This document shows positions 21,883-64,000 of a DNA stretch of 64,000 nucleotides, one piece after another (within the stretch, counting starts at the first letter, position 1; each line of letters opens with the position of its first letter). The translations under genes and the position numbers were made by a program. The notes beneath the pieces were generated by a model, which worked only from the letters and a program-made list of their open reading frames with translations, made no database searches and was not told the origin of the DNA. Location of the stretch: positions 74,870-138,869 of the forward strand of contig CANHCR010000001.1 in the NCBI GenBank assembly GCA_947459205.1, written 5' to 3'. This DNA is from Bacillales bacterium. Its GTDB lineage: Bacteria > Bacillota > Bacilli > Paenibacillales > CANHCR01.

Positions 21883-21917
21883 TAGAGCATCACTTTTCGT
21901 GAAAGGGGGTGATAAAA

Positions 21918-23405
21918 ATGGCTATGAGTATATTTGATTTAAAAGCAGGTTTGAAAACGGATACAAATTTGAGTGTAACCAAGCCTTCGTCAAGCCAAGC
22001 GAAACACAGCGATTTTCGCAGTGTTTTAGAGAATGTGCAAAAAATAAGACAATCGCAACCGACGAGGATCAACGCTCCAACGGAGTCGAACGACAATCTT
22101 GATGTAAGCGTTCAAGTACCACCTAGTAGTGTGAAAACTGATGAGGTTGAACACGAAGTGGTTGTACAAGAAGTCGCTGAACATGAAGAGGTTGAACAAA
22201 AAGTGGCTGATGTGGTAACTCAACTTTCAAATCCAACGCAGTCACAAGAAACGATAGAGGTTAGTGATGCAATCGTCCAGTCTAGTTCACTCAATGAGGA
22301 AATGAAAGTTGTTGTGAATGAGTCTGACGAACAGATTCAGTTGACCAATGTTGAGGTAAATGTTGCAGTTGCAGAAGTACCATTCTCATTGGCGCCGCAA
22401 CAACGTATTGCTGTCCATGAATTTGAACAAATGATTACTCAATTGAATCAGTTCATGAATGGCAAACTTCAATTAGACGAGCAACAATTGCAGGCATTAA
22501 TGGCGAAGTTGATGAAGTTTTTGCAACAAAATGCGGATTGGATGGAAACGAATCCGATGTTCAAAAATAAACCAGTTGCAGAATTCATGGTTGCACTGAA
22601 TCAATTGTTATCCGGTGATCAAAAACCTAATTTGGAAACGCTTCAAAAATTGATAGCGCAATTCCAGAAGGTGGACGAACCTGTAACTGATGCTAAGAAT
22701 GCTGATGCAAAGCAAACGACAACAGCAACATCATCAGCAACTACTTCAGACACAAAGTCTCAACCAAGTGAACCAAAACTTGCGGCGAACGCCAAACAAG
22801 TCGTAGCTTTTTCTGAACAAAAAGTAGAGCAACCAGCAGTTGCCCCTACGCAAGCGAAGGCAACAGAACCAGTGACTGTGTCAAATCAGATTCAGCAACA
22901 AATCACGACTCAGCAACTTACTACTGCCAAACCTGAACAGACGCAAACATTCACACCACAACAGTTGCCACAAGAAATGCAAAAATTAGTGAAAAGTTTC
23001 CGCTTAAATCGAGCGAACGGCACAAACGAAGCGCGATTTGCATTAAATCCGGAACATCTTGGTCATATTAACGTAAAAATTAGCGTTACAAATGGCTCGG
23101 TGGTAGCACAAATCTATACGGACACTGCGATGGCTAAGGAAACGCTAGATGCACAATTGCTCCATTTAAGAGCTGCACTACAAAGTTCAGGCCTAATCGT
23201 AGAGAAGTTAGAAATTTTCAACAATACAATGCTTTCTCAACAATTCCACGAGCAAAAACGACAACAATCTTCACAGCAATTCAACAAGCAACAAAAACAA
23301 AAGCATGTTGATGTGACGGATGTGGGCATTCAAGAGGATGAATCTACGGATGTCGAATCTGGAATTCGCTTGAAAATGGGGGCGAGAATCGATGTCACCG
23401 CATAA
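21918..23405 (+). CDS. fliK: Flagellar hook-length control protein FliK
   Basis: Q/T-rich central region and C-terminal Flg_hook-type domain (ARFALNPEHLGHINVKISVTNGSVVAQIYTDTAMAKETLDAQLLHLRAALQSSGL). GAAAGGGGG lies upstream of ATG 21918. Confidence 0.8.
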   Translation: MAMSIFDLKAGLKTDTNLSVTKPSSSQAKHSDFRSVLENVQKIRQSQPTRINAPTESNDNLDVSVQVPPSSVKTDEVEHEVVVQEVAEHEEVEQKVADVVTQLSNPTQSQETIEVSDAIVQSSSLNEEMKVVVNESDEQIQLTNVEVNVAVAEVPFSLAPQQRIAVHEFEQMITQLNQFMNGKLQLDEQQLQALMAKLMKFLQQNADWMETNPMFKNKPVAEFMVALNQLLSGDQKPNLETLQKLIAQFQKVDEPVTDAKNADAKQTTTATSSATTSDTKSQPSEPKLAANAKQVVAFSEQKVEQPAVAPTQAKATEPVTVSNQIQQQITTQQLTTAKPEQTQTFTPQQLPQEMQKLVKSFRLNRANGTNEARFALNPEHLGHINVKISVTNGSVVAQIYTDTAMAKETLDAQLLHLRAALQSSGLIVEKLEIFNNTMLSQQFHEQKRQQSSQQFNKQQKQKHVDVTDVGIQEDESTDVESGIRLKMGARIDVTA

Positions 23406-23896: not shown

Positions 23897-24310
23897 ATGA
23901 GCGATCGCCTGCCCATCCACCAACTTTACCAAAATGCGTTGCGAACACCGCAGGTAAAACCGGGGGTAAACGTACCGAACAAATTCAACGGTACGGTTAC
24001 AAAAGGGAATCAACAACCAGGCGCAGCAAGTTTCCAAAACATACTGCAACAACGAATTTTGCAGTTCAGTCAGCACGCGGAAACTCGGCTAAGACAAAGA
24101 GGGATTGTGTTGCGTAATGATCAAATCGAGAAAATTAACAACGCAATTGACAAAGCATCTGCGAAGGGCGCTAAAGATTCACTGATTTTGATGCAAGACG
24201 TTGCGATGATCGTCAACATCAAAAACAGAACCGTGATTACCGCGATGGATTCGCAATCACTAGAGGATCATGTTTTCACGCAAATAGACAGTGCAGTAAT
24301 TATTCCTTAA
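23897..24310 (+). CDS. Flagellar operon protein of the family found between flgD and flgE in Firmicutes (TIGR02530-like)
   Basis: FSQHAETRLRQRGIVL...AIDKASAKGAKDSLILMQDVAMIVNIKNRTVITAMD matches my recollection of that family, and the position fits. Function unknown. Confidence 0.6.
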   Translation: MSDRLPIHQLYQNALRTPQVKPGVNVPNKFNGTVTKGNQQPGAASFQNILQQRILQFSQHAETRLRQRGIVLRNDQIEKINNAIDKASAKGAKDSLILMQDVAMIVNIKNRTVITAMDSQSLEDHVFTQIDSAVIIP

Positions 24311-24388: not shown

Positions 24389-25555
24389 ATGATTAGAGCG
24401 ATGTATTCAGGTATTTCCGGTATGAGAGGCTTTCAAACAAAGTTGGATGTAATCTCCAACAACGTAGCGAACGTGAACACGACTGGTTACAAATTGGCAC
24501 GTACGACGTTTCGTGATATTTTGAGCCAAACGGTCGCTGCTGGTACTGTTCCAAATCAAGATCAAGGCGGTATCAATGCGCGTCAAATCGGTTTGGGTGT
24601 TGGCGTTGCTTCGATTGATACAATTTTCTCGCAAGGTTCCGCACAAAGCACTGGTGTTAAGACAGATTTGATGATTGAGGGCGATGGATTCTTCGTCGTT
24701 TCTGAAACTGCTTCAGGTTCTGCGCTTGGTAATACGGCAAACAAAACGAGCGTCAGTGTGGCAGCTATGGATGAAACGAGTGTTACGTTAGATATTTCTG
24801 CACCAACGAATCCAACAACTCCAATAGCTCAATATCGCATCCTTCGTGCACAAGGTGACAATCCGCCACAACAGATTGGTTTAATCAATGTTGAAGATGA
24901 ACCTTATCAAGCAACAGGACTTACTGCCGGTGAAACATACACATTCAGTGTTGAGGCACTAGATGCAGATGGTAATGTCATTTCCGGATATCCGAGTGAG
25001 ACTTTAGAAGTCGTGATGGATCCGAACATTAATCAAATTGGCAAAAGCAGCAGCGACTCCATCGGTCTTTTGTTCACTCGTGCGGGTAATTTCTATTTTG
25101 ATAAAAACCGTAACCTCGTAACTGCTGACGGTTTGTTCGTTATGGATACTGAAGGCAAGAAAATTACGATTGATCCGACAGCGGTTGCATATAACATTGA
25201 CGAGCGCGGATTCATTGTCCAAGTCAATAACAAAGGGGAGCAAATTGAGAATTCACCACAAATCGGTATTGCTAAGTTTGCCAACCCACAAGGTCTAGAA
25301 AAAGTCGGTTCAACTCGCTTCAGATATACGCGTGTTGCGGATGCTGATGATCAACCGAAACCATACATTTTCAAACCTGATACATTCGAAAAAGGTACCG
25401 GTAAAATTCGTTCCGGATTCCTTGAAATGTCGAACGTTGACCTCGGTGTTGAGTTCTCTGAAATGATCGTTTCGCAACGTGGATTTCAAGCGAACACAAG
25501 AATCATCACCACATCAGATGAACTGTTGCAAGAAGTCGTTAACCTGAAACGATAA
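24389..25555 (+). CDS. flgE: Flagellar hook protein FlgE with an internal fn3-like insertion
   Basis: N-terminal rod/hook motif MYSGISGMRGFQTKLDVISNNVANVNTTGYK and C-terminal LEMSNVDLGVEFSEMIVSQRGFQANTRIITTSDELLQEVVNLKR. AGGAGG RBS. See the finding for aa 119-208. Confidence 0.9.
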   Translation: MIRAMYSGISGMRGFQTKLDVISNNVANVNTTGYKLARTTFRDILSQTVAAGTVPNQDQGGINARQIGLGVGVASIDTIFSQGSAQSTGVKTDLMIEGDGFFVVSETASGSALGNTANKTSVSVAAMDETSVTLDISAPTNPTTPIAQYRILRAQGDNPPQQIGLINVEDEPYQATGLTAGETYTFSVEALDADGNVISGYPSETLEVVMDPNINQIGKSSSDSIGLLFTRAGNFYFDKNRNLVTADGLFVMDTEGKKITIDPTAVAYNIDERGFIVQVNNKGEQIENSPQIGIAKFANPQGLEKVGSTRFRYTRVADADDQPKPYIFKPDTFEKGTGKIRSGFLEMSNVDLGVEFSEMIVSQRGFQANTRIITTSDELLQEVVNLKR

Positions 25556-25659: not shown

Positions 25660-25875
25660 ATGATTACTGTCACTCGCCTAAATGGACAACCAATCACAAT
25701 TAACGCACTGATGATCGAATCCATCGAACAAACCCCTGATACACTCATCGCTTTGACTACTGGAAAAAGATTAACTGTTCGCGAAAAGAGTGCTGATGTG
25801 ATAGACTTAATAAAGCAATACATGACATCCATTAATTATATCCGTCTGGATTTCAAGACTAAGGAGGACCAATAA
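25660..25875 (+). CDS. flbD: Flagellar protein FlbD (SwrD/YlzI-like)
   Basis: MITVTRLNGQPITINALMIESIEQTPDTLIALTTGKRLTVREKSADVIDLIKQY is the typical FlbD sequence pattern. Confidence 0.85.
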   Translation: MITVTRLNGQPITINALMIESIEQTPDTLIALTTGKRLTVREKSADVIDLIKQYMTSINYIRLDFKTKEDQ

Positions 25876-25876
25876 A

Positions 25877-26356
25877 GTGTTCAAAAATAAATTGCTCCAA
25901 CTTGGCGTCATTATTTTAATCGCGCTAGCACTAATCGCAGTCGTCGTTGTCATTCTATTCAATACGATTCTAGATACAAGTCCTGATCCGAATGACCCGA
26001 ATGCGAATGTGAAGGAAAAAGTTGAAAATGTGGATAGCAAAAAGTACACAGCTGATGAGTTGATCGAAATGTCTGTTCACATGAATGATCTGATTGCCAA
26101 TTTGTCGAATAAAGACATCGTGCAACTTAGTTTGACGTTCGAATTGGACAGCGTTGACGCTAAGGGAGAGTTCGAAAAGTTAGACTACATCACCAAAGAT
26201 ATCGTGCTAAAGACGATTGCTGACATGAAACCGGAAGATATTGAAGGAGCGAAAGGGATTGACTTCCTATCTGCAACTTTGATGAACAAAATCAATCCGA
26301 AATTAACCGAAGGTAAACTTCGCGAAATTTATGTCACCAAACTGATTCAGCCATAG
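25877..26356 (+). CDS. fliL: Flagellar basal body-associated protein FliL
   Basis: 159 aa with a single N-terminal TM (LLQLGVIILIALALIAVVVVILF) and C-terminal LREIYVTKLIQP. Sits before fliM. Confidence 0.85.
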   Translation: MFKNKLLQLGVIILIALALIAVVVVILFNTILDTSPDPNDPNANVKEKVENVDSKKYTADELIEMSVHMNDLIANLSNKDIVQLSLTFELDSVDAKGEFEKLDYITKDIVLKTIADMKPEDIEGAKGIDFLSATLMNKINPKLTEGKLREIYVTKLIQP

Positions 26357-32634: not shown

Positions 32635-34674
32635 TTGAGGATTCAAGATTTAGTCGTATTGATCGGCATTATTCTCATCGTATTGATGATGGTCATTCCG
32701 ATTCCACTACCTTTGCTTGACCTTTTGCTAATTATCAACATTTCCGTTGCGATATTGATTTTACTTGTCGCAATGAATACGGAAGATGCCCTCAATTTTT
32801 CGATTTTCCCGACGTTGTTGCTCATTACAACGTTATTTAGGCTCACCTTGAATATTTCTACTACACGAAATATTTTGACTACAGGTGAAGGTGGCAGCGT
32901 TGTCGAAGCATTCGGTTCATTCGTGGCAGGCGGAAACATTGTCGTTGGTTTCGTTATCTTTTTGATTCTAGTGATTGTCCAATTTATCGTTATCACCAAA
33001 GGTTCAGAGCGGGTAGCGGAAGTTGCTGCGCGGTTTACGCTCGATGCAATGCCTGGTAAACAAATGGCGATCGATGCAGATTTGAACGCTGGCATTATCA
33101 GCGAACAGGAAGCGAAAGACCGTCGCGAAAAAGTTTCTCGAGAAGCCGATTTTTATGGAGCGATGGACGGGGGTAGTAAATTCGTTAAAGGTGACGCCAT
33201 CGCCGGTATTATTATCGTATTAATCAATCTTATTGGCGGTCTCATCATCGGTATGGTGATGATGGACATGCCATTTACTGAAGCGATGTCGACGTTTGCC
33301 ATTCTTACCATCGGTGACGGTTTGGTCAGTTCGATTCCGGCATTGCTTATTTCAACGGCAACCGGTGTCATTGTCACAAGGGCTGTATCCGAAGGCAATT
33401 TGGCATTTGACATGCAGTCGCAATTGTTCCGTTATCCGAAATTGTTATACATTGTTGCAGGTGCGATTGCTGGACTTGGATTGTTCACGCCGATTCATTT
33501 GTTGCCTTCGCTTGGAGTAGCTGGAGCGCTAGCATTTGCCGGTTTCCAAATGCAACGAAATCTCAAAAAAATCGAACTCGAAGAGTCGCGCCAGGAGGAA
33601 GAGCAAGAAATCGAAGAAGTGCGCTCACCAGAAAGTGTCGTCGGCTTGTTGCAAATTGATCCGATTGAATTTGAATTCGGTTATGGCTTGATCCCGTTAG
33701 CAGATACTCAACAAGGTGGAGACTTGCTCGATCGCGTCATTATGATTCGCCGTCAATGTGCGATTGAGATGGGGATTATCGTTCCAGTCATTCGGATTCG
33801 TGATAATGTTCAATTAAAACCAAATCAATATGTCATTAAAATTAAGGGTGACGAAGTGTCGCGCGGTGAACTTTTGCTCAACAACTACTTGGCAATGAGT
33901 CCTGGTATCGAAGAAGCAGACGATTCGATTACTGGTATCGAAACTGTCGAACCAGCGTTTGGACTGCCGGCTCTTTGGATCGATGAAGCAATGAAAGATC
34001 AGGCTGAATTCGCTGGCTACACAGTCGTAGATCCACCATCCGTCGTGGCAACGCATCTAACAGAGATCATTAAGCGTTTTGCACATGAGTTGCTCGGTAG
34101 ACAAGAAACCAAATCACTCATTGATAACATTAAAGAAACGCATCCTGCGTTGGTCGAAGAACTAATCCCAAGTTTACTTACGCTTGGTGAAGTACAAAAG
34201 GTACTGGTCAACTTATTGCGCGAGAAAGTATCCATCAAAAATTTAGTGCAAATCTTGGAGGCACTCGCAGACAATGTGATGTTCACCAAAGACACAGATG
34301 TACTGACGGAATACGTAAGACAAAGATTAGCACGCCAAATTACGCTCCAATATTCCAACGGAGAAGAACAATTAAAAGTGATTACACTTGGCCCTAAATT
34401 AGAGCGCAAAATCGCAGAATCGCTTCAACAAAGTGACCAAGGCATGTACGTTGCCTTAGATCCCTCTTCCAATCAAATGTTTATGCAAAGTCTCAATGAA
34501 CAAATCGAGAAGATGGTTCAGTTCGGCCAACAACCAATCATACTCAGTTCGCCGGCCGTACGTATGTACGTTCGTCAAATCTTAGAGCGAACAATGGCGG
34601 ATTTACCGATATTGTCATACAATGAACTTGATCCAAATGTTGAAATCCAGAGCGTTGGAGTGGTTAACTTATGA
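32635..34674 (+). CDS. flhA: Flagellar export gate protein FlhA
   Basis: 679 aa. FHIPEP motifs (ERVAEVAARFTLDAMPGKQMAIDADLNAG) and a C-terminal cytoplasmic domain. Confidence 0.96.
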   Translation: MRIQDLVVLIGIILIVLMMVIPIPLPLLDLLLIINISVAILILLVAMNTEDALNFSIFPTLLLITTLFRLTLNISTTRNILTTGEGGSVVEAFGSFVAGGNIVVGFVIFLILVIVQFIVITKGSERVAEVAARFTLDAMPGKQMAIDADLNAGIISEQEAKDRREKVSREADFYGAMDGGSKFVKGDAIAGIIIVLINLIGGLIIGMVMMDMPFTEAMSTFAILTIGDGLVSSIPALLISTATGVIVTRAVSEGNLAFDMQSQLFRYPKLLYIVAGAIAGLGLFTPIHLLPSLGVAGALAFAGFQMQRNLKKIELEESRQEEEQEIEEVRSPESVVGLLQIDPIEFEFGYGLIPLADTQQGGDLLDRVIMIRRQCAIEMGIIVPVIRIRDNVQLKPNQYVIKIKGDEVSRGELLLNNYLAMSPGIEEADDSITGIETVEPAFGLPALWIDEAMKDQAEFAGYTVVDPPSVVATHLTEIIKRFAHELLGRQETKSLIDNIKETHPALVEELIPSLLTLGEVQKVLVNLLREKVSIKNLVQILEALADNVMFTKDTDVLTEYVRQRLARQITLQYSNGEEQLKVITLGPKLERKIAESLQQSDQGMYVALDPSSNQMFMQSLNEQIEKMVQFGQQPIILSSPAVRMYVRQILERTMADLPILSYNELDPNVEIQSVGVVNL

Positions 34675-36059
34675 GAGTAAAACGTTATATCGTAGATACG
34701 ATGCCGGAAGCGATGAAAAAAATTCGCGAAGAACTAGGGAAAGACGCCGTTATTTTGAATCAGAAGGAAGTTCGTGTCGGCGGGTTCCTCGGCTTGTTCT
34801 CACAGAAGAAAATTGAAGTAGTGGCGGCTGTCGATCCGAGCATCCAGCAATCCAAACCGCGGCAACAGCAAGCGCCTGTAGCGACCACGCCGGTTCGGAC
34901 GCAAACCACCGCAATGACGCAATCGGCCGCTACAACATTGAATGTTGCAGGAGCAAATGCAGCATATGGCATCAATACAAATACACGAACAGAGGCAACC
35001 GCTCAAACGAATCCAGTGATTGCGACAACGGATGCAGGCAAACCTGCTTCCACTGCTACTGCGGCAGCGGTGGCCGTTGCTACCGAGCCAGATAAGCAAG
35101 GAACGCTTGTCGATGCAGTGAATGCGTCGGACAAATCGCAACCGAGCAAAGAAACAGTTGAAGAACCAAAACGTACAGATGAATCGGTGCTAAGTGAACT
35201 TCGTCAAATGAAGGAAATGATGCTGAAACTTTCGACAGCATCGCGCGAACAAAACCAAGACCATGAAAATATTCAGAAGATGATTGAACACCTCGAAAAT
35301 CAGGAGTTCGATTCGGTTCTCATCGAAGAAATCATCTTGCACGTGAAAAACCAATTGGAACAAAGCGGCATTGCTGACCCAGACGAAGAAACGGTGCGCA
35401 GTCTTGTGCGTGAACAATTGGAGAAAATCGTCTACAGTAATGGTGTCATGACAATCGCACCTGAAACGAAAATTGTCCATTTTGTCGGTCCGACTGGGGT
35501 CGGTAAAACGACGACGATTGCCAAACTTGCTGCGTTGCAAGTGCTTGAAAACAAACGCAAAGTAGGCTTCATTACAGCGGATACGTATCGGATTGCTGCA
35601 GTAGAACAGTTGCGCACCTATGCAAGCATCCTCAACGCGCCGATTGAAGTGGCGATGTCACCACAGGACCTGGCTCGCGCATACGAATCGATGAAAGATC
35701 TCGATATCATTTTCATGGACACGGCTGGACGAAATTTCCGCAATGAGATGTATGTTTCCGAGTTGAATACGATGTTGAATTCAAGTGAGCATTCGGAAAC
35801 GTATCTCGTGCTTAGTATGACGATGAAGTACAAGGATATGAAAGCGATTACCGAAAATTTCAGCCGGATTCGCATTGATCGACTGTTATTCTCTAAAATT
35901 GATGAATCCGCTTCATATGGTGCCATCGTGAATTTGATTCATCAGTTTTCCATTCCACTCTCTTATTTCACATTCGGACAACAAGTTCCTAATGACATCG
36001 AGGTTGTGAAAGAAGACCGCTTCGTCGGTCAGTTGATGGGGGAAGATACGAATGAATGA
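34671..36059 (+). CDS. flhF: Flagellar SRP-type GTPase FlhF (with an expanded low-complexity B-domain)
   Basis: G1 [17 protein letters not shown]3 DTAGR, G4-like SKIDE. ATGA overlap with flhA. Confidence 0.9.
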   Translation: MRVKRYIVDTMPEAMKKIREELGKDAVILNQKEVRVGGFLGLFSQKKIEVVAAVDPSIQQSKPRQQQAPVATTPVRTQTTAMTQSAATTLNVAGANAAYGINTNTRTEATAQTNPVIATTDAGKPASTATAAAVAVATEPDKQGTLVDAVNASDKSQPSKETVEEPKRTDESVLSELRQMKEMMLKLSTASREQNQDHENIQKMIEHLENQEFDSVLIEEIILHVKNQLEQSGIADPDEETVRSLVREQLEKIVYSNGVMTIAPETKIVHFVGPTGVGKTTTIAKLAALQVLENKRKVGFITADTYRIAAVEQLRTYASILNAPIEVAMSPQDLARAYESMKDLDIIFMDTAGRNFRNEMYVSELNTMLNSSEHSETYLVLSMTMKYKDMKAITENFSRIRIDRLLFSKIDESASYGAIVNLIHQFSIPLSYFTFGQQVPNDIEVVKEDRFVGQLMGEDTNE

Positions 36060-36942
36060 TCAGGCTCAAGAATTACGGCAAATGGTCAACAATGTCATTG
36101 CCAGCCAGGATCCGAATCGTAAGCAGACGAAAGTCATTACCGTTACGAGTGGCAAAGGTGGCGTAGGCAAGTCCAACTTCACGTTAAACTTCGCCTTGAT
36201 TTTACAAAGTTACGGGTATAAAGTACTGATTTTTGATGCTGATATCGGGTTTGCAAACATCGATGTATTGATGGGGATGACGCCACAGTATAATTTGCAC
36301 CATATGCTCAAACGAGAGAAGACGATTTGGGAAATCATCAATGTCGGTCATAATAACTTGCAGTTTATTGGTGGTGGCTCAGGATTCCAAGACTTGATTC
36401 GGTTATCCGAGAGTGAAGTCGAATATTTCGTATCACAAGTAAATCAATTGAACGGACATGTCGATTTCATCATCTTCGATACGGGTGCCGGATTATCCAA
36501 AGAAACATTGCGCTTTATCATCGCAGCCAACGAAACGATTGTGCTCACTACGCCCGAACCGACTTCTGTTATGGATGCGTATTCGATTATTAAAATGGTG
36601 CGCGCGATGAACTATAAAATCAAGTTTCAGTTGGTCGTCAATCGGGTTGCTGATGCGAAAGAAGGCAAGCAGACTGCAGACAAAATCAGCATGGTTTGTC
36701 AACGGTTTTTAAATATCGAATTGCCTGTTCTTGGATATGTACCTGACGATCTCAATGTCACGAAAGCGGTCAAAAAACAAGTCCCGTTTTCACTTGCTTT
36801 TCCGAACTCCGAAGCGACGCGTGGCGTCTCAAGCATTGTGCAGCGTTTTGTTGCCGGTCAAACGGCGTCGCCTGAACCTGAAACCGAAAACAGTGGTATC
36901 AAGGGCTTCTTAGGAAAGATGATGAAACTTTTGAAACAGTAA
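36052..36942 (+). CDS. flhG: MinD/ParA-type ATPase FlhG (YlxH)
   Basis: Deviant Walker A TSGKGGVGKSNFTLNFA. Overlaps the flhF stop. The C-terminal basic/amphipathic tail GFLGKMMKLLKQ resembles a membrane-targeting sequence. Confidence 0.88.
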   Translation: MNDQAQELRQMVNNVIASQDPNRKQTKVITVTSGKGGVGKSNFTLNFALILQSYGYKVLIFDADIGFANIDVLMGMTPQYNLHHMLKREKTIWEIINVGHNNLQFIGGGSGFQDLIRLSESEVEYFVSQVNQLNGHVDFIIFDTGAGLSKETLRFIIAANETIVLTTPEPTSVMDAYSIIKMVRAMNYKIKFQLVVNRVADAKEGKQTADKISMVCQRFLNIELPVLGYVPDDLNVTKAVKKQVPFSLAFPNSEATRGVSSIVQRFVAGQTASPEPETENSGIKGFLGKMMKLLKQ

Positions 36943-36973
36943 ATTACACAAACCATTAAGGGAGATTTGATCG

Positions 36974-37405
36974 ATGTACGGAACAATCGGCTGGAACTTC
37001 ATCATATCGGCGGTATCGGCGGTGCTGGCTTTTTTCGTATCACTTTCCAGCAACCTGTTTTTGACTGCGCTTATTCAATCGCTATATGTGTTCGGGATTA
37101 TGTTCCTTGTTGCGTTCATATTCCGTTTTCTGGTCGGATTACTCATCGCAATTAATTTGCCCGTAGATACGAATTTGGAGTTCACTTCGACGAATCAAAT
37201 TTTAGATGCAGGTGGCAACGTTAACATCCAAACTCCAAATAATGATGATTTCTTGCAAGATATTTTGCGCCAAAATTACATGAACAACGGTGAGGAGCAG
37301 CAACAAGACTTTTCACCGCTGAATCCTACGCGATTGTCGAGTGCGCCTGAGACTCAGGCAGATCCATTGGTGGAAGCTGTGCGTTCTTCACTTCGCCAAA
37401 ACTAG
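36974..37405 (+). CDS. Hypothetical small membrane protein (2 predicted TMs plus an acidic Q/N-rich tail)
   Basis: 143-aa ORF with GGGAG RBS. It occupies the slot where B. subtilis-type operons carry cheB-cheA-cheW-cheC-cheD. I recognise no family. Confidence 0.5.
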   Translation: MYGTIGWNFIISAVSAVLAFFVSLSSNLFLTALIQSLYVFGIMFLVAFIFRFLVGLLIAINLPVDTNLEFTSTNQILDAGGNVNIQTPNNDDFLQDILRQNYMNNGEEQQQDFSPLNPTRLSSAPETQADPLVEAVRSSLRQN

Positions 37406-37418
37406 GAGGTGACTGGGG

Positions 37419-38201
37419 ATGGTGGAAGGTAAACCTGCTGAGTTAACTTATGTTGATTTGTGGGTAAAATTCAAAGAAGAAGGTTCAGATGAAGCGCGCA
37501 AGCAGTTGATTGTTAACTACATGAAAATTGTTGACGTCGTCGTCAATCGGCTGGCGATTGGCTTGCCGAAGAACATATCTAGAGATGATTTGGCTGGATA
37601 TGGTATAATGGGCTTAATTGACGCGGTCAATCGCTTCGATCACAAACGTGGTTGGCAGTTTGAAACGTATGCTTCTTGGCGAATTCGCGGTGCTATCATC
37701 GACAGTCTCCGCCAAAGCGATTGGGTTCCACGCTCGATCCGCGAGAAGGCAAAACGAATTGAAGATGCCTACACTTCGCTCGAACAGAAATATATGCGTG
37801 ACGTCAAGGATGAAGAAATCTCAACGTTTTTGAATGTTTCGATTGATGAATTTCACAAAATGTTACAAGAAACCGCGATATCTACCGTGATCTCGTTTGA
37901 TGAACCAATCAAAGACGAAGAAACTGATTCGAGACTCTCTCTGCTGATTGACATCAATGCGGTCAATCCAGAGAGCAAAGTGAACGAAGTATTTCTGAAG
38001 GAGATTCTCGCGAAAACATTAGAAAAACTCACGGTCAACGAAAGACAGGTCGTCACTTTGTTTTATTTTGAGGAACTATCGTTGACTGAAATCGCAGATG
38101 TGATGAATCTTTCTCCTTCTCGTATTTCACAACTTCACTCGAAGGCTATCCTAAGATTAAGAGGTTCATTAGCAAGATTTAAATCGCAATTGTTTGTTTA
38201 A
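37419..38201 (+). CDS. sigD: Flagellar sigma factor SigD (FliA/WhiG family)
   Basis: Region 2 (YASWRIRGAIIDSLR), region 3, and region 4 HTH (LSLTEIADVMNLSPSRISQLHSKAILRLR). AGGAGG RBS. Confidence 0.92.
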   Translation: MVEGKPAELTYVDLWVKFKEEGSDEARKQLIVNYMKIVDVVVNRLAIGLPKNISRDDLAGYGIMGLIDAVNRFDHKRGWQFETYASWRIRGAIIDSLRQSDWVPRSIREKAKRIEDAYTSLEQKYMRDVKDEEISTFLNVSIDEFHKMLQETAISTVISFDEPIKDEETDSRLSLLIDINAVNPESKVNEVFLKEILAKTLEKLTVNERQVVTLFYFEELSLTEIADVMNLSPSRISQLHSKAILRLRGSLARFKSQLFV

Positions 38202-38566: not shown

Positions 38567-39100
38567 GTGAACTTATGGATTTATTTAATCATCGCTGGGA
38601 TTATCGCGGTCATTTGGTCATTTGTACTGCCTTCCCAACCTAACAAGTCGAAACAAGGCACTTCACTTGATGATTTAGAAGAATCATTGAATAGTTTCAC
38701 TTCTGGTTTAGAGGAAGATAATAAGGATCTTAATGCAAGATTACAATCGATGAAAATCGATCATGAGATTCAAAAAAGCGAATTGTTGATGCGCATCGAC
38801 TATCTCGAGCGTAAGAGCAATCAAATCGAAGAGGATACAAAGCGCGTGGCCAGAACCGTTGAAGATGAGATCATTCATCAAGCGCGTACTGGCGGACGTC
38901 CGGCGGATGGACCGCTTGGAACTGCACCAGAACCAGAGCAAGAAGAGCAGGCTCCGCAAACGATGGTCGAGCGTTATCCTGAGTTGTTCGAACTGTACAA
39001 AGAAGGCAAATCGATCGAGTTTATCGCCAAAAAAGTCGGCAAAAATAAAGGTGAAGTCATTTTGATTATTGACTTGGCGAAGCAAGGAGAAGAAATTTAA
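38567..39100 (+). CDS. SwrB-like protein (N-terminal TM, coiled coil, C-terminal HTH-like motif)
   Basis: The architecture and the C-terminal ELFELYKEGKSIEFIAKKVGKNKGEVILIIDLAKQG resemble my recollection of the B. subtilis SwrB C-terminus (..ELYEQGYSASQIAQKMKSGKTEIELFLKF..). Sits downstream of sigD. AAAGGAG RBS. Confidence 0.5.
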   Translation: MNLWIYLIIAGIIAVIWSFVLPSQPNKSKQGTSLDDLEESLNSFTSGLEEDNKDLNARLQSMKIDHEIQKSELLMRIDYLERKSNQIEEDTKRVARTVEDEIIHQARTGGRPADGPLGTAPEPEQEEQAPQTMVERYPELFELYKEGKSIEFIAKKVGKNKGEVILIIDLAKQGEEI

Positions 39101-39642
39101 TGGCAAAGAAATCATTTTTACTTGGTCTCGGACTCGGTTTGTTATTGGCAACATTAACGTTACAACTTGATTTTTGGAAAGTGCAGACGGACCAGCAGAT
39201 CAATGCTGGCGAGATGACGGTCGAAAAACTGCGTGAAGAAGCGAAAAAATTCGATTACGAATTGAAGACGAAAAATGAGATTCAATTGGAAATCGAAAAA
39301 GCAATCGAGCAATACAAAAACAAACAAAATTCCGGACAACCGCAGTCAAACAGTCAGACCAAACCTACGCAGCAGACTTCCGGGAATGCTGCGAATGTCA
39401 CAACCACACTGAATGGTACGAAGAAAACGCCGACGAGCATCAAAATTACCATTCAAAAAGGTTGGGATGCAACGCAAGTTGCGAACTACTTACATAATTC
39501 GAATGTCGTTAAAGATAAGAACGCGTTGCTGAAAGCGCTTGTCGGCATCTCGAAAACGCGGCAAATTGCTGCCCGTTCGTTTTTCTTAGAGCCGAACTCA
39601 GATCCGAAAGAAGTCGCACAAAAGATCACTACTGGTAAATAA
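39100..39642 (+). CDS. Hypothetical membrane-anchored protein with a C-terminal YceG/MltG-N-terminal-like (LysM-like) segment
   Basis: N-terminal TM (FLLGLGLGLLLATLTL). The C-terminal IKITIQKGWDATQVANYLHNSNVVKDKNALLKAL...FFLEPNSDPKEVAQKI follows the pattern of the MltG N-terminal domain. Last gene before the operon terminator. Confidence 0.45.
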   Translation: MAKKSFLLGLGLGLLLATLTLQLDFWKVQTDQQINAGEMTVEKLREEAKKFDYELKTKNEIQLEIEKAIEQYKNKQNSGQPQSNSQTKPTQQTSGNAANVTTTLNGTKKTPTSIKITIQKGWDATQVANYLHNSNVVKDKNALLKALVGISKTRQIAARSFFLEPNSDPKEVAQKITTGK

Positions 39643-62684: not shown

Positions 62685-63395
62685 TTATTCCACTTGTTTG
62701 AAAAGTTTGATCGAACTGACGATTTGCAGTTCGGGGTCGATGTCAAATTTCAAAATCGCACCATTTTTTGAATACGTCATCACATAGGTGCTGAAACTGT
62801 CTGCCGCACCGAGCGTTTGCGCAACATCATTCACGTTGCTGCCGATGGCCACATTACCTAGCCCTACGTTGCTATTTTCAGCGATGACGTTAATGAATTC
62901 AGCGCGCCCGTCAGAGTCGAAGCCGGCGATAAACTCACTGAATTCCATGACGAGGAGCGGTTCCGAGTGACCGTCCGTAAAATATTCGTTAAGTGGCGAG
63001 CCGTGACTGCTGAGGAACAGTGACTTGTCGTCACCGATGCTCATCCCGAACAAAGAAAATACATCGCCTTTAAATGGCGCTGCGTTCGCCGCATCAGGCT
63101 CATCCGGACTCGACTGCTTCGCGTCGGACGTATCGTTACTTTGCACTTTAATTTTGTCATCGTTGTTCTCTTTATTCGAGACATTGCCTTCCGCATCGTT
63201 CGTGGCACCACTGTCACCGCTCTTTTCGCTGGACTGGTTGCCTTCTTCTTTCAACTCATTACTTTGTCCTTGCTTCGTTTCTTCTGCACTTTGTTGCTTA
63301 TGTGACTCGCGCGATGGTGTATAGATGAGGGCGAGGAAAATAATAACACTCAGCAGGGTAATCGAAAGCAGCCACCACGGCTTTGCTCTTTGCAT
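62685..63395 (-). CDS. Hypothetical membrane-anchored/secreted protein (TM, acidic S/N/E/K-rich linker, ~110-aa C-terminal globular domain)
   Basis: ATG 63395 follows AAGGGGA. The product starts MQRAKPWWLLSITLLSVIIFLALIY. I recognise no family. Confidence 0.55.
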   Translation of the reverse strand: MQRAKPWWLLSITLLSVIIFLALIYTPSRESHKQQSAEETKQGQSNELKEEGNQSSEKSGDSGATNDAEGNVSNKENNDDKIKVQSNDTSDAKQSSPDEPDAANAAPFKGDVFSLFGMSIGDDKSLFLSSHGSPLNEYFTDGHSEPLLVMEFSEFIAGFDSDGRAEFINVIAENSNVGLGNVAIGSNVNDVAQTLGAADSFSTYVMTYSKNGAILKFDIDPELQIVSSIKLFKQVE

Positions 63396-63465
63396 GACAA
63401 TCCCCTTTTTTTTAAAAATTCTTTGTAATATAATCATACTATATACAGGAGCGGAGGTCGAGAGG

Positions 63466-64000
63466 ATGGACAGTCTAAAACAAAGAATTTTGCAAGAAGG
63501 CATCGTAGTTTCTGATCAGTTGCTGCGCGTCGATTCATTTTTGAACCATCAGGTCGATCCGCCGTTGTTGCTTGAGATGGGGCGCGAGTTTGCCGCTCGC
63601 TTTCGCGATGCAGGCATTACGAAAGTGATTACCGTCGAGTCGTCGGGGATATCCATTGGATTTGCGATGGCGCTCGATTTGAATGTGCCGATGGTATTTG
63701 TGCGTAAAAAGAAGACGGTCATTATGGATCAAGATGCGTATGTGGCGCGCGTACCTTCATTTACAAAAGGAATCGTGACCGATTTGGCGATTGCTAAAAA
63801 ATATTTATCGGCTGAAGATACGGTCGTTTTGGTCGATGATTTCATTGCGAATGGTGACGCGGCGTTGGCAATTATTAAAATTGTCGAGGAGTCGGGCGCC
63901 AAGTTGGCGGGCGTGGGAATCGCCATCGAGAAGCTGTTCCAAGCGGGTGGCAATGCCATTCGCGAGCAAGGGATTCGCGTCGAGTCACTCGTGCAAATTC
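63466..64000 (+). CDS. xpt: Xanthine phosphoribosyltransferase, 3'-truncated by the window end (absent from the ORF track because no stop is reached)
   Basis: My own translation gives MDSLKQRILQEGIVVSDQLLRVDSFLNHQVDPPLL...ITKVITVESSGI...VVLVDDFIANGDAA...GIAIEK, closely parallel to B. subtilis Xpt. GGAGG..GAGAGG lies upstream of ATG 63466. Confidence 0.9.
   Translation, partial: MDSLKQRILQEGIVVSDQLLRVDSFLNHQVDPPLLLEMGREFAARFRDAGITKVITVESSGISIGFAMALDLNVPMVFVRKKKTVIMDQDAYVARVPSFTKGIVTDLAIAKKYLSAEDTVVLVDDFIANGDAALAIIKIVEESGAKLAGVGIAIEKLFQAGGNAIREQGIRVESLVQI

Follow-up and report, generated by a model that had tools for sequence, protein, structure and literature searches.

A fibronectin type III domain nested in the first D1 hairpin of a D2-less flagellar hook protein

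The stretch of DNA analyzed here (the window) comprises 64,000 nucleotides (nt) of contig CANHCR010000001.1 from a Bacillales bacterium and carries a flagellar operon whose open reading frames (ORFs) and Pfam matches gave the order fliK, flgD, a gene of family PF12611, flgE, flbD, fliL, fliM, and fliY. To judge from its sequence and its neighbors, flgE encodes the structural hook subunit of a flagellum of the Bacillus/Paenibacillus type, a product that would polymerize into the hook; in the interior of this protein lies a domain of the fibronectin type III (fn3) family. A preliminary description of this DNA had proposed such a module at 24743-25012, and translation of that interval on the forward strand gave exactly the 90 residues quoted there, which correspond to residues 119-208 of the 388-residue ORF. 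Conserved rod/hook segments were found on both sides of the insert, as that description had also claimed. In Pfam searches, Flg_bb_rod (PF00460) matched residues 5-35 with 47.0 bits (cutoff 20.7) before the insert, and LlgE_F_G_D1 (PF22692; residues 227-276, 50.9 bits, cutoff 27) and Flg_bbr_C (PF06429; residues 341-386, 58.8 bits, cutoff 23) matched after it, with the PF22692 model being broken by the insert between model positions 16 and 17.

Profile searches bore out the assignment of the insert to the fn3 family. The Pfam fn3 profile (PF00041, gathering cutoff 25) matched residues 122-197 with 29.9 bits in the context of the whole protein (E 6.7e-7) and with 31.9 bits when the insert was searched alone (E 1.6e-7), and the scores indicate a match far beyond chance. 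For the other insert-bearing hooks described below, the same profile gave 32.2 bits with P0002 and fell below the cutoff with P0003 (23.6 bits) and P0004 (19.0 bits). A word-indexed homology search with the insert alone returned no matches and missed even the parent protein, and an exhaustive HMMER search was used instead, in which residues 110-225 were compared with 1.84 billion representatives. At E<=1e-3 this search returned 2,323 proteins, of which 371 reached E<=1e-10; most were long multi-fn3 proteins, and the sole match of FlgE size was P0002. Eight proteins sampled from among the closest per-domain matches were all fn3 arrays (8/8), with best identities of 40-47%.

Structure prediction led to the same assignment. 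With an alignment of 118 sequences, AlphaFold modeled seven strands over residues 121-209 (121-127, 131-137, 148-155, 161-167, 173-176, 183-191, and 206-209) at a predicted local distance difference test score (pLDDT) of about 76-90, and the linkers at 115-117 and 215-224 were modeled as disordered, with pLDDT below 50. A model of the insert alone likewise had seven strands and a mean pLDDT of 85. When this second model was searched against the PDB with Foldseek, the best 50 of 181 significant matches were all fn3 domains, among them monobodies, titin, and receptor phosphatases, with root mean square deviations of 2.2-3 Å over about 90 residues and target TM-scores up to 0.78. No FlgE chain was among these best 50 matches. 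The predicted fold is that of the seven-strand fn3 sandwich rather than of the FlgE D2 barrel. An intein or mobile-element origin was considered and rejected, as the insert is about 105 residues long and has the fn3 fold rather than a Hint/intein fold. The insert showed no anomaly in GC content, which does not differ from that of the remaining gene; the 64-kb window yielded neither a second fn3 domain nor a donor gene, and Rfam gave no match in it.

The remainder of the protein has the features of a hook subunit. With the full AlphaFold model, Foldseek matched FlgG/FlgE chains from cryo-electron microscopy (cryo-EM) first (E about 1e-9 to 1e-10) and fn3 domains thereafter. The NCBIfam subfamily model TIGR03506 scored 193 against a cutoff of 70, and none of the NCBIfam equivalogs, those for FlgE included, reached its cutoff with this protein. 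The best NCBIfam model was PRK12636 (263 positions), which matched in two pieces flanking the insert with 330 bits, a score just under the cutoff of 350 because the fn3 insert splits the match. PRK12636 still carries the name 'FlgG' in NCBIfam; in B. subtilis, the gene occupying this position formerly bore the name flgG, and Courtney, Cozy and Kearns reportedly found in 2012 (J Bacteriol) that it encodes the hook. The gene analyzed here occupies the hook-gene position right after fliK and flgD, and the same context was found for P0002, P0003, P0004, and the insert-free P0005. In the alignment with the E. coli proteins, a long Dc segment (24518-24574, FlgE residues about 44-62) is paired with the 18-residue insertion specific to FlgG, a stretch missing from E. 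coli FlgE. The TopA protein of this genome is only 64-66% identical to that of any named Paenibacillus, Cohnella, or Marinicrinis species, and the organism is therefore assigned to an uncultured Paenibacillaceae-like lineage.

The position of the domain was determined with a MAFFT alignment to E. coli FlgE and FlgG. In this alignment, the fn3 domain falls between residues 114 ('GDGFFVVSETASGSALG') and 225 ('IGLLFTRAGNF'), the roughly 155-column D2 block falls between residues 265 and 266 (that is, between 'IDPTA' and 'VAYNI'), and our hook protein is without any D2. The alignment thus places the fn3 domain at the tip of the first D1 hairpin, between 'GDGFFVV..GSALG' and 'LLFTRAGNF', and the equivalent site is 'VDSNGS' in E. 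coli FlgE (Ser87-Asn88 in numbering without the initial Met) and Ser87-Asn88 in Salmonella FlgE. The preliminary description had implied the usual position of 'D2 and beyond' for the module, and this part has to be revised: the canonical D2 position, at about residues 145-284 of Salmonella/E. coli FlgE and between the halves of D1, is not where the domain lies, its site being about 40 core residues upstream. The accompanying term 'variable region' is loosely apt, because the hairpin loop is the length-variable one of short hooks.

An alignment-free survey of motif spacing covered 124 sequences, made up of the FlgE genes from fetched loci, this FlgE, and the E. coli references. A large insertion at the canonical D2 site was present in 108/124 and none in 11/124, and a large insertion at the hairpin site was confined to this FlgE, one sequence identical to it, and three exact duplicates of P0003. 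An alignment histogram from a hidden Markov model (HMM) had suggested 96 large insertions at the fn3 site, but this was contradicted by both motif spacing and MAFFT and was set aside as an artifact, because the profile gathers long inserts at whichever insert state is most permissive, and it could not place the D2 of E. coli. Separately, the FlgE of an Oscillospiraceae metagenome-assembled genome (L025, JAISXU010000023.1) is longer by about 26 residues at this hairpin, in addition to a modest expansion at the D2 site, and the hairpin may therefore be a place where expansion recurs, though on a minor scale.

We then considered the distribution of the insert among the best 120 homologues, 114 of which were measurable by motif spacing. 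Only P0001 (identical to the protein studied here), P0002, P0003, and P0004 carry it. The spacing from GFF to TRxGxF was 15-18 residues in 104/114 short hooks, 25-26 in the insert-free close relatives P0005 (283 residues) and P0006 (282 residues), and 131-144 in the four carriers; every non-carrier has 15-26 residues at this loop. With 110 of the 114 lacking the insert and the PRK12636 model spanning 263 positions, the earlier statement that Bacillus-type hooks are much shorter and lack the module was upheld. Among the relatives surveyed, the sequences indicate that the insertion is confined to four metagenomic lineages. Scans of genome and metagenome collections found distant FlgE proteins only, with at most about 37% full-length identity, and no close relatives with DNA; close relatives for which DNA was available were few. 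The same architecture was recorded in several independent assemblies or samples, always in the same operon context. NCBI, ENA, and Logan sources all hold the identical protein, and other samples yielded diverged versions; the source metagenomes are JGI 3300059473, 3300042430, and 3300042473, ERR3761229, and SRR27422569.

P0005 lies in the same operon context and is therefore the positional orthologue of the gene analyzed here, and alignment with its DNA (L001:395-1246) revealed one clean in-frame gap of 315 nt. A tree built from the core alone had the topology ((this FlgE, P0002, P0003), (P0004, P0005)), P0006, with a bootstrap of 0.85 for P0004 plus P0005, and this topology calls for either one gain and one loss or two gains. 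Within the return linker 'DPNxxxIGKxSxDSIG', 9/15 positions are identical between this FlgE and P0004, and the shared linker favors a single gain. P0004 (JGI 3300059473, on a 30.6-kb contig) is a 401-residue hook whose insert at the same site is about 25% identical to ours and matches Pfam fn3 weakly (19 bits); by sequence comparison, this insert would reflect either extreme divergence or replacement of the module. One record among the loci, SPQJ01000062.1 (L053), is labeled 'UNVERIFIED_ORG: Bacillus sp. AZ43', and its FlgE is listed among Blastococcus/Geodermatophilus matches of similar length and identity; it is probably contaminated or mislabeled.

The insert and the core differ markedly in their rates of change. 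The core is 99.3%, 98.2%, and 88.1% identical to that of P0002, P0003, and P0004, respectively, and the corresponding identities of the insert are 75.7%, 70.9%, and 25.5%. Against the DNA of P0003, the ratio of nonsynonymous to synonymous substitution rates (dN/dS) was 0.013 in the core and about 0.15 in the fn3 domain, values that are rough because dS is saturated (1.1-1.9). These comparisons point to an fn3 domain under purifying selection yet evolving much more rapidly than the core. The substitutions are concentrated in two places, the BC loop (9/14 columns) and the C' strand (5/7), and the conserved parts of the insert are the linker, the AB region, the FG loop, and strands B and G. The return linker is the best conserved of these, with 2/15 columns varying among this FlgE, P0002, and P0003. 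It is also the part most conserved across lineages, yet has a pLDDT below 50 at residues 215-224, and may become ordered only in the assembled hook. Taken jointly, the gene identification, the assignment of the fn3 fold, the site of insertion, the restricted distribution, and the combination of purifying selection with fast divergence are findings of which we are highly confident.

The coordinates of the domains of FlgE and of the neighboring genes are collected in Table 1. Farther out, the window holds sucCD, dprA, topA, trmFO, xerC, hslVU, codY, and the export-gate genes, and the surroundings of the gene have the chromosomal layout typical of Bacillales. In the fla/che operon of B. subtilis, a che block lies between flhG and sigD. 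Here, unlike in B. subtilis, flhF and flhG are followed directly by sigD (34671-38201), and the cheB/cheA/cheW/cheC/cheD block is missing from the flhG-sigD interval; genes for chemotaxis may be located elsewhere. Three ORFs had no Pfam match at E<=1e-5, namely those at 11-1489 (492 residues), 39100-39642 (180 residues), and, on the reverse strand, 62685-63503 (272 residues).

Table 1. Positions in the window of the parts of the hook protein gene and of its neighbors
Feature	Coordinates	Strand	Basis or remark
flgE, hook protein gene, 388 aa plus stop	24389..25555	+	ORF, Pfam, PRK12636; model core matches Salmonella FlgG/FlgE cryo-EM chains
N-terminal core, aa 1-114: D0 helix, long Dc segment, first D1 strands up to 'GDGFFVVSETASGSALG'	24389..24730	+	alignment with E. 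coli FlgG 1-106 and with C. jejuni FlgE 2-107
N-side linker, aa 115-120 (NTANKT)	24731..24748	+	pLDDT <50 at 115-117; missing from insert-free orthologue P0005
fn3 body, aa 121-209, strands A, B, C, C', E, F, G	24749..25015	+	Pfam, AlphaFold, Foldseek
Return linker, aa 210-224 (MDPNINQIGKSSSDS), leading the chain back to the D1 hairpin	25016..25060	+	conservation; pLDDT low at 215-224
C-terminal core, aa 225-388: 'IGLLFTRAGNF...', rest of D1, C-terminal D0 helix	25061..25552	+	contiguous alignment to E. coli FlgG 113-259
Net in-frame insertion, 315 nt (105 codons) versus insert-free orthologue	24734..25048	+	DNA alignment; exact boundaries ambiguous by a few codons
Codons A265 and V266, equivalent of the canonical D2 insertion point, empty here	25181..25186	+	alignment with E. 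coli FlgE
fliK (hook-length control), upstream neighbor	21909..23405	+	ORF; PF02120 Flg_hook at the orthologous position in related contigs
flgD (hook cap), 150 aa	23432..23884	+	Pfam FlgD, E 2.5e-19
Small flagellar gene (PF12611, Flagellar_put)	23897..24310	+	Pfam, E 3.8e-13
flbD	25660..25875	+	Pfam FlbD, E 4.4e-23
fliL	25877..26356	+	Pfam FliL, E 7.3e-10

In the resulting scheme, a hook protein made up of D0, Dc, and D1 and lacking D2 has gained one complete fn3 domain through an in-frame insertion of about 105 codons. A seven-strand fn3 domain has its termini at opposite poles, and therefore a short entry linker and a longer return linker are needed for nesting it in a hairpin; this need for a return linker accounts for the conserved segment of ~15 residues after strand G (DPNxxxIGKxSxDS). 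Since D1 is the outermost domain of a D2-less hook, the fn3 domain would be located on or between the D1 domains of every subunit. Hooks of other bacteria, including Salmonella, contain about 120 subunits (PMC4032328), and we infer that the fn3 copies, on the order of a hundred per hook, would form a new outer layer. The face docked against the hook would consist of strands A, B, and G together with the FG loop and the linker, leaving the BC loop and C' to face the solvent as an exposed and fast-diverging surface. The added layer could provide extra contacts between subunits, or could limit the compression of protofilaments, and the universal joint would be thickened and toughened, as by D2 in Salmonella and D3/D4 in Campylobacter.

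Work on other hooks provides context for this scheme. Kato et al. found that Ser87-Asn88 of the Salmonella protein contacts Gly348-Gly350 of a 6-start neighbor only in compressed protofilaments (PMC6874566). A hook from which D2 has been deleted still works but is straight, making D2 dispensable for the function of the joint (PMC6874566), and the extra hook domains D3/D4 of Campylobacter add stability and robustness (PMC5097172). On the whole analysis, we regard the chances as about even that the fn3 domain is a new outer layer of the hook, docked through its conserved part and most likely mechanical in its role, with both the function and the surface geometry being our reconstruction. More tentatively, and with the odds in our view leaning clearly against it, the D1 hairpin tip might be a second, previously unrecognized site of domain acquisition, where the fn3 domain, as a built-in spacer or an outer lattice, would give a D2-less joint a different bending stiffness. 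If true, this would be a new structural solution to hook mechanics, so far seen only in an uncultured Paenibacillaceae-like clade.

Several points weigh against a docked mechanical layer. In Salmonella, the hairpin tip is at the lateral D1-D1 contact and not at the radial tip of D1, and a bulky domain at that contact could equally hinder packing. The fast divergence of the fn3 domain fits a dispensable decoration more readily than a precise lattice, as does its absence from the close relative P0005. The low AlphaFold confidence of both linkers suggests a flexible tether, and the saturation of dS leaves the dN/dS values rough.

It is possible, though we are inclined to doubt it, that the domain is mainly a decoration of the hook surface with no mechanical role, either as protection (a shield or decoy) from flagellotropic phages, predators, or antibodies or as an adhesive or glycan-binding module that makes the hook a contact organelle. 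The much faster divergence of the insert relative to the core, the mixed presence and absence within one tight clade, and the concentration of substitutions in the BC loop and C' strand all speak for such a role, and the poorly modeled linkers are consistent with a tethered domain. The nearest sequence relatives, too, are repeats in giant fn3/Ig-like proteins that, by their architecture, would be at the cell surface. Set against this, positive selection was not apparent, at this resolution, from the overall dN/dS of 0.15, a ligand-binding motif was not identified, and the hook is such a tiny share of the flagellar surface compared with the filament that it would do poorly as a shield or adhesin. 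A fixed docking geometry is what the conserved return linker and strands point to.

The same linker bears on the idea that the domain is a tolerated passenger, a stable and fast-folding unit that landed in an already enlarged, permissive loop and persists since it does little harm. We consider this unlikely, even though the loop is indeed enlarged in the clade (a spacing of 25-26 in the insert-free P0005 and P0006 versus 15-18 in 104/114), P0005 lacks the domain in the same operon context, and Salmonella with a foreign insertion of 386 residues in FlgE remains motile (PMC5069557). A mere passenger is hard to square with a strongly conserved linker, a dN/dS well below 1, and a fold that has stayed intact through saturation of synonymous sites, across lineages whose TopA proteins are just 76% identical. 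Moreover, about a hundred extra domains per hook have to be exported unfolded through the type III channel, and the insert is therefore not free of cost. It is most improbable that the architecture results from an artifact, such as a chimeric assembly, a pseudogene, or an intein-like element, or that the gene encodes a rod paralogue rather than the hook. The best NCBIfam model is indeed named 'FlgG' and scored 330, just under the cutoff of 350, and with 64 kb of the genome seen, a second flgE could exist elsewhere. The ORF, however, is intact and in frame, the identical protein occurs in NCBI, ENA, and Logan sources with diverged versions in other samples, the GC content is that of the flanks, and the insert is under purifying selection; at about 105 residues it is an fn3 rather than a Hint/intein fold, and the gene follows fliK and flgD directly, which is the place of the hook gene in Bacillus-type operons.

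The preliminary description had further suggested that fn3 was undescribed as an outer domain of the hook, and full-text literature searches agreed with this in linking fn3 only to FlgD. These searches turned up no description of fn3 in FlgE or as an outer domain of flagellin, and no catalogued FlgE subtype of this kind was found. PF00041 had already been flagged on P0001 and P0002 by public pipelines, for which we found no accompanying description. Lineage-specific outer hook domains are known, and those in the literature found here lie within D2 or upon it and have unusual folds; what is new in this protein is its fold, the point of insertion, and a background that lacks D2. A Gram-positive hook without D2 has recruited a standard fn3 domain into the very hairpin whose tip makes compression-dependent contacts in Salmonella. 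Alleles without the insert (P0005), with it, and with a highly diverged form of it (P0004) share nearly the same core and constitute a natural experiment, and the set allows a test of the effect of an added outer layer on the mechanics of the universal joint. The case also suggests a permissive site for engineered displays on B. subtilis-type hooks, and it illustrates how a domain with termini at opposite poles can be nested by means of a conserved return linker.

The nearest known system is the short hook FlgE of the B. subtilis type (about 264 residues), which resembles the protein analyzed here in operon position and in having a D0-Dc-D1 core without D2, and the hooks of named Paenibacillaceae are 54-59% identical to the latter protein. 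What the B. subtilis-type hook lacks is the ~105 residues of fn3 domain and linkers in the first D1 hairpin. The D2 domains of Salmonella, E. coli, and Caulobacter FlgE are, like the fn3 domain, extra beta-rich domains borne by D1 and repeated on every subunit, but they are barrels inserted at the equivalent of 265/266, whereas the fn3 sandwich is inserted at 114/225. The D2 domains are arranged over the surface of the hook in six-start arrays that shape its supercoiling (PMC6769732; PMC6874566). D3/D4 of Campylobacter jejuni FlgE and D3 of Caulobacter FlgE lie within D2 and were reported to have folds absent from the PDB (PMC5069557). These are likewise lineage-specific, hypervariable outer hook domains added by insertion, but they are nested in D2 and have unusual folds, whereas here a common fn3 domain is placed directly in D1 of a hook with no D2.

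Beyond hook subunits, the closest comparison is with the hook cap. FlgD of Salmonella carries an fn3 domain (PMC8595650), as do other FlgD proteins, and it is related to the hook like the fn3 domain described here but belongs to the cap protein and not to the hook subunit. The FlgD encoded in the window is 150 residues long and matches Pfam in just its N-terminal region, and in this organism it is the hook subunit, not the cap, that bears fn3. The bacterial multi-repeat fn3 proteins (PF00041) share the family and the fold, with a best per-domain identity of 40-47%; in those proteins, the domains are tandem beads, whereas in this FlgE a single copy is nested in the hairpin of another domain and is followed by a return linker of ~15 residues.

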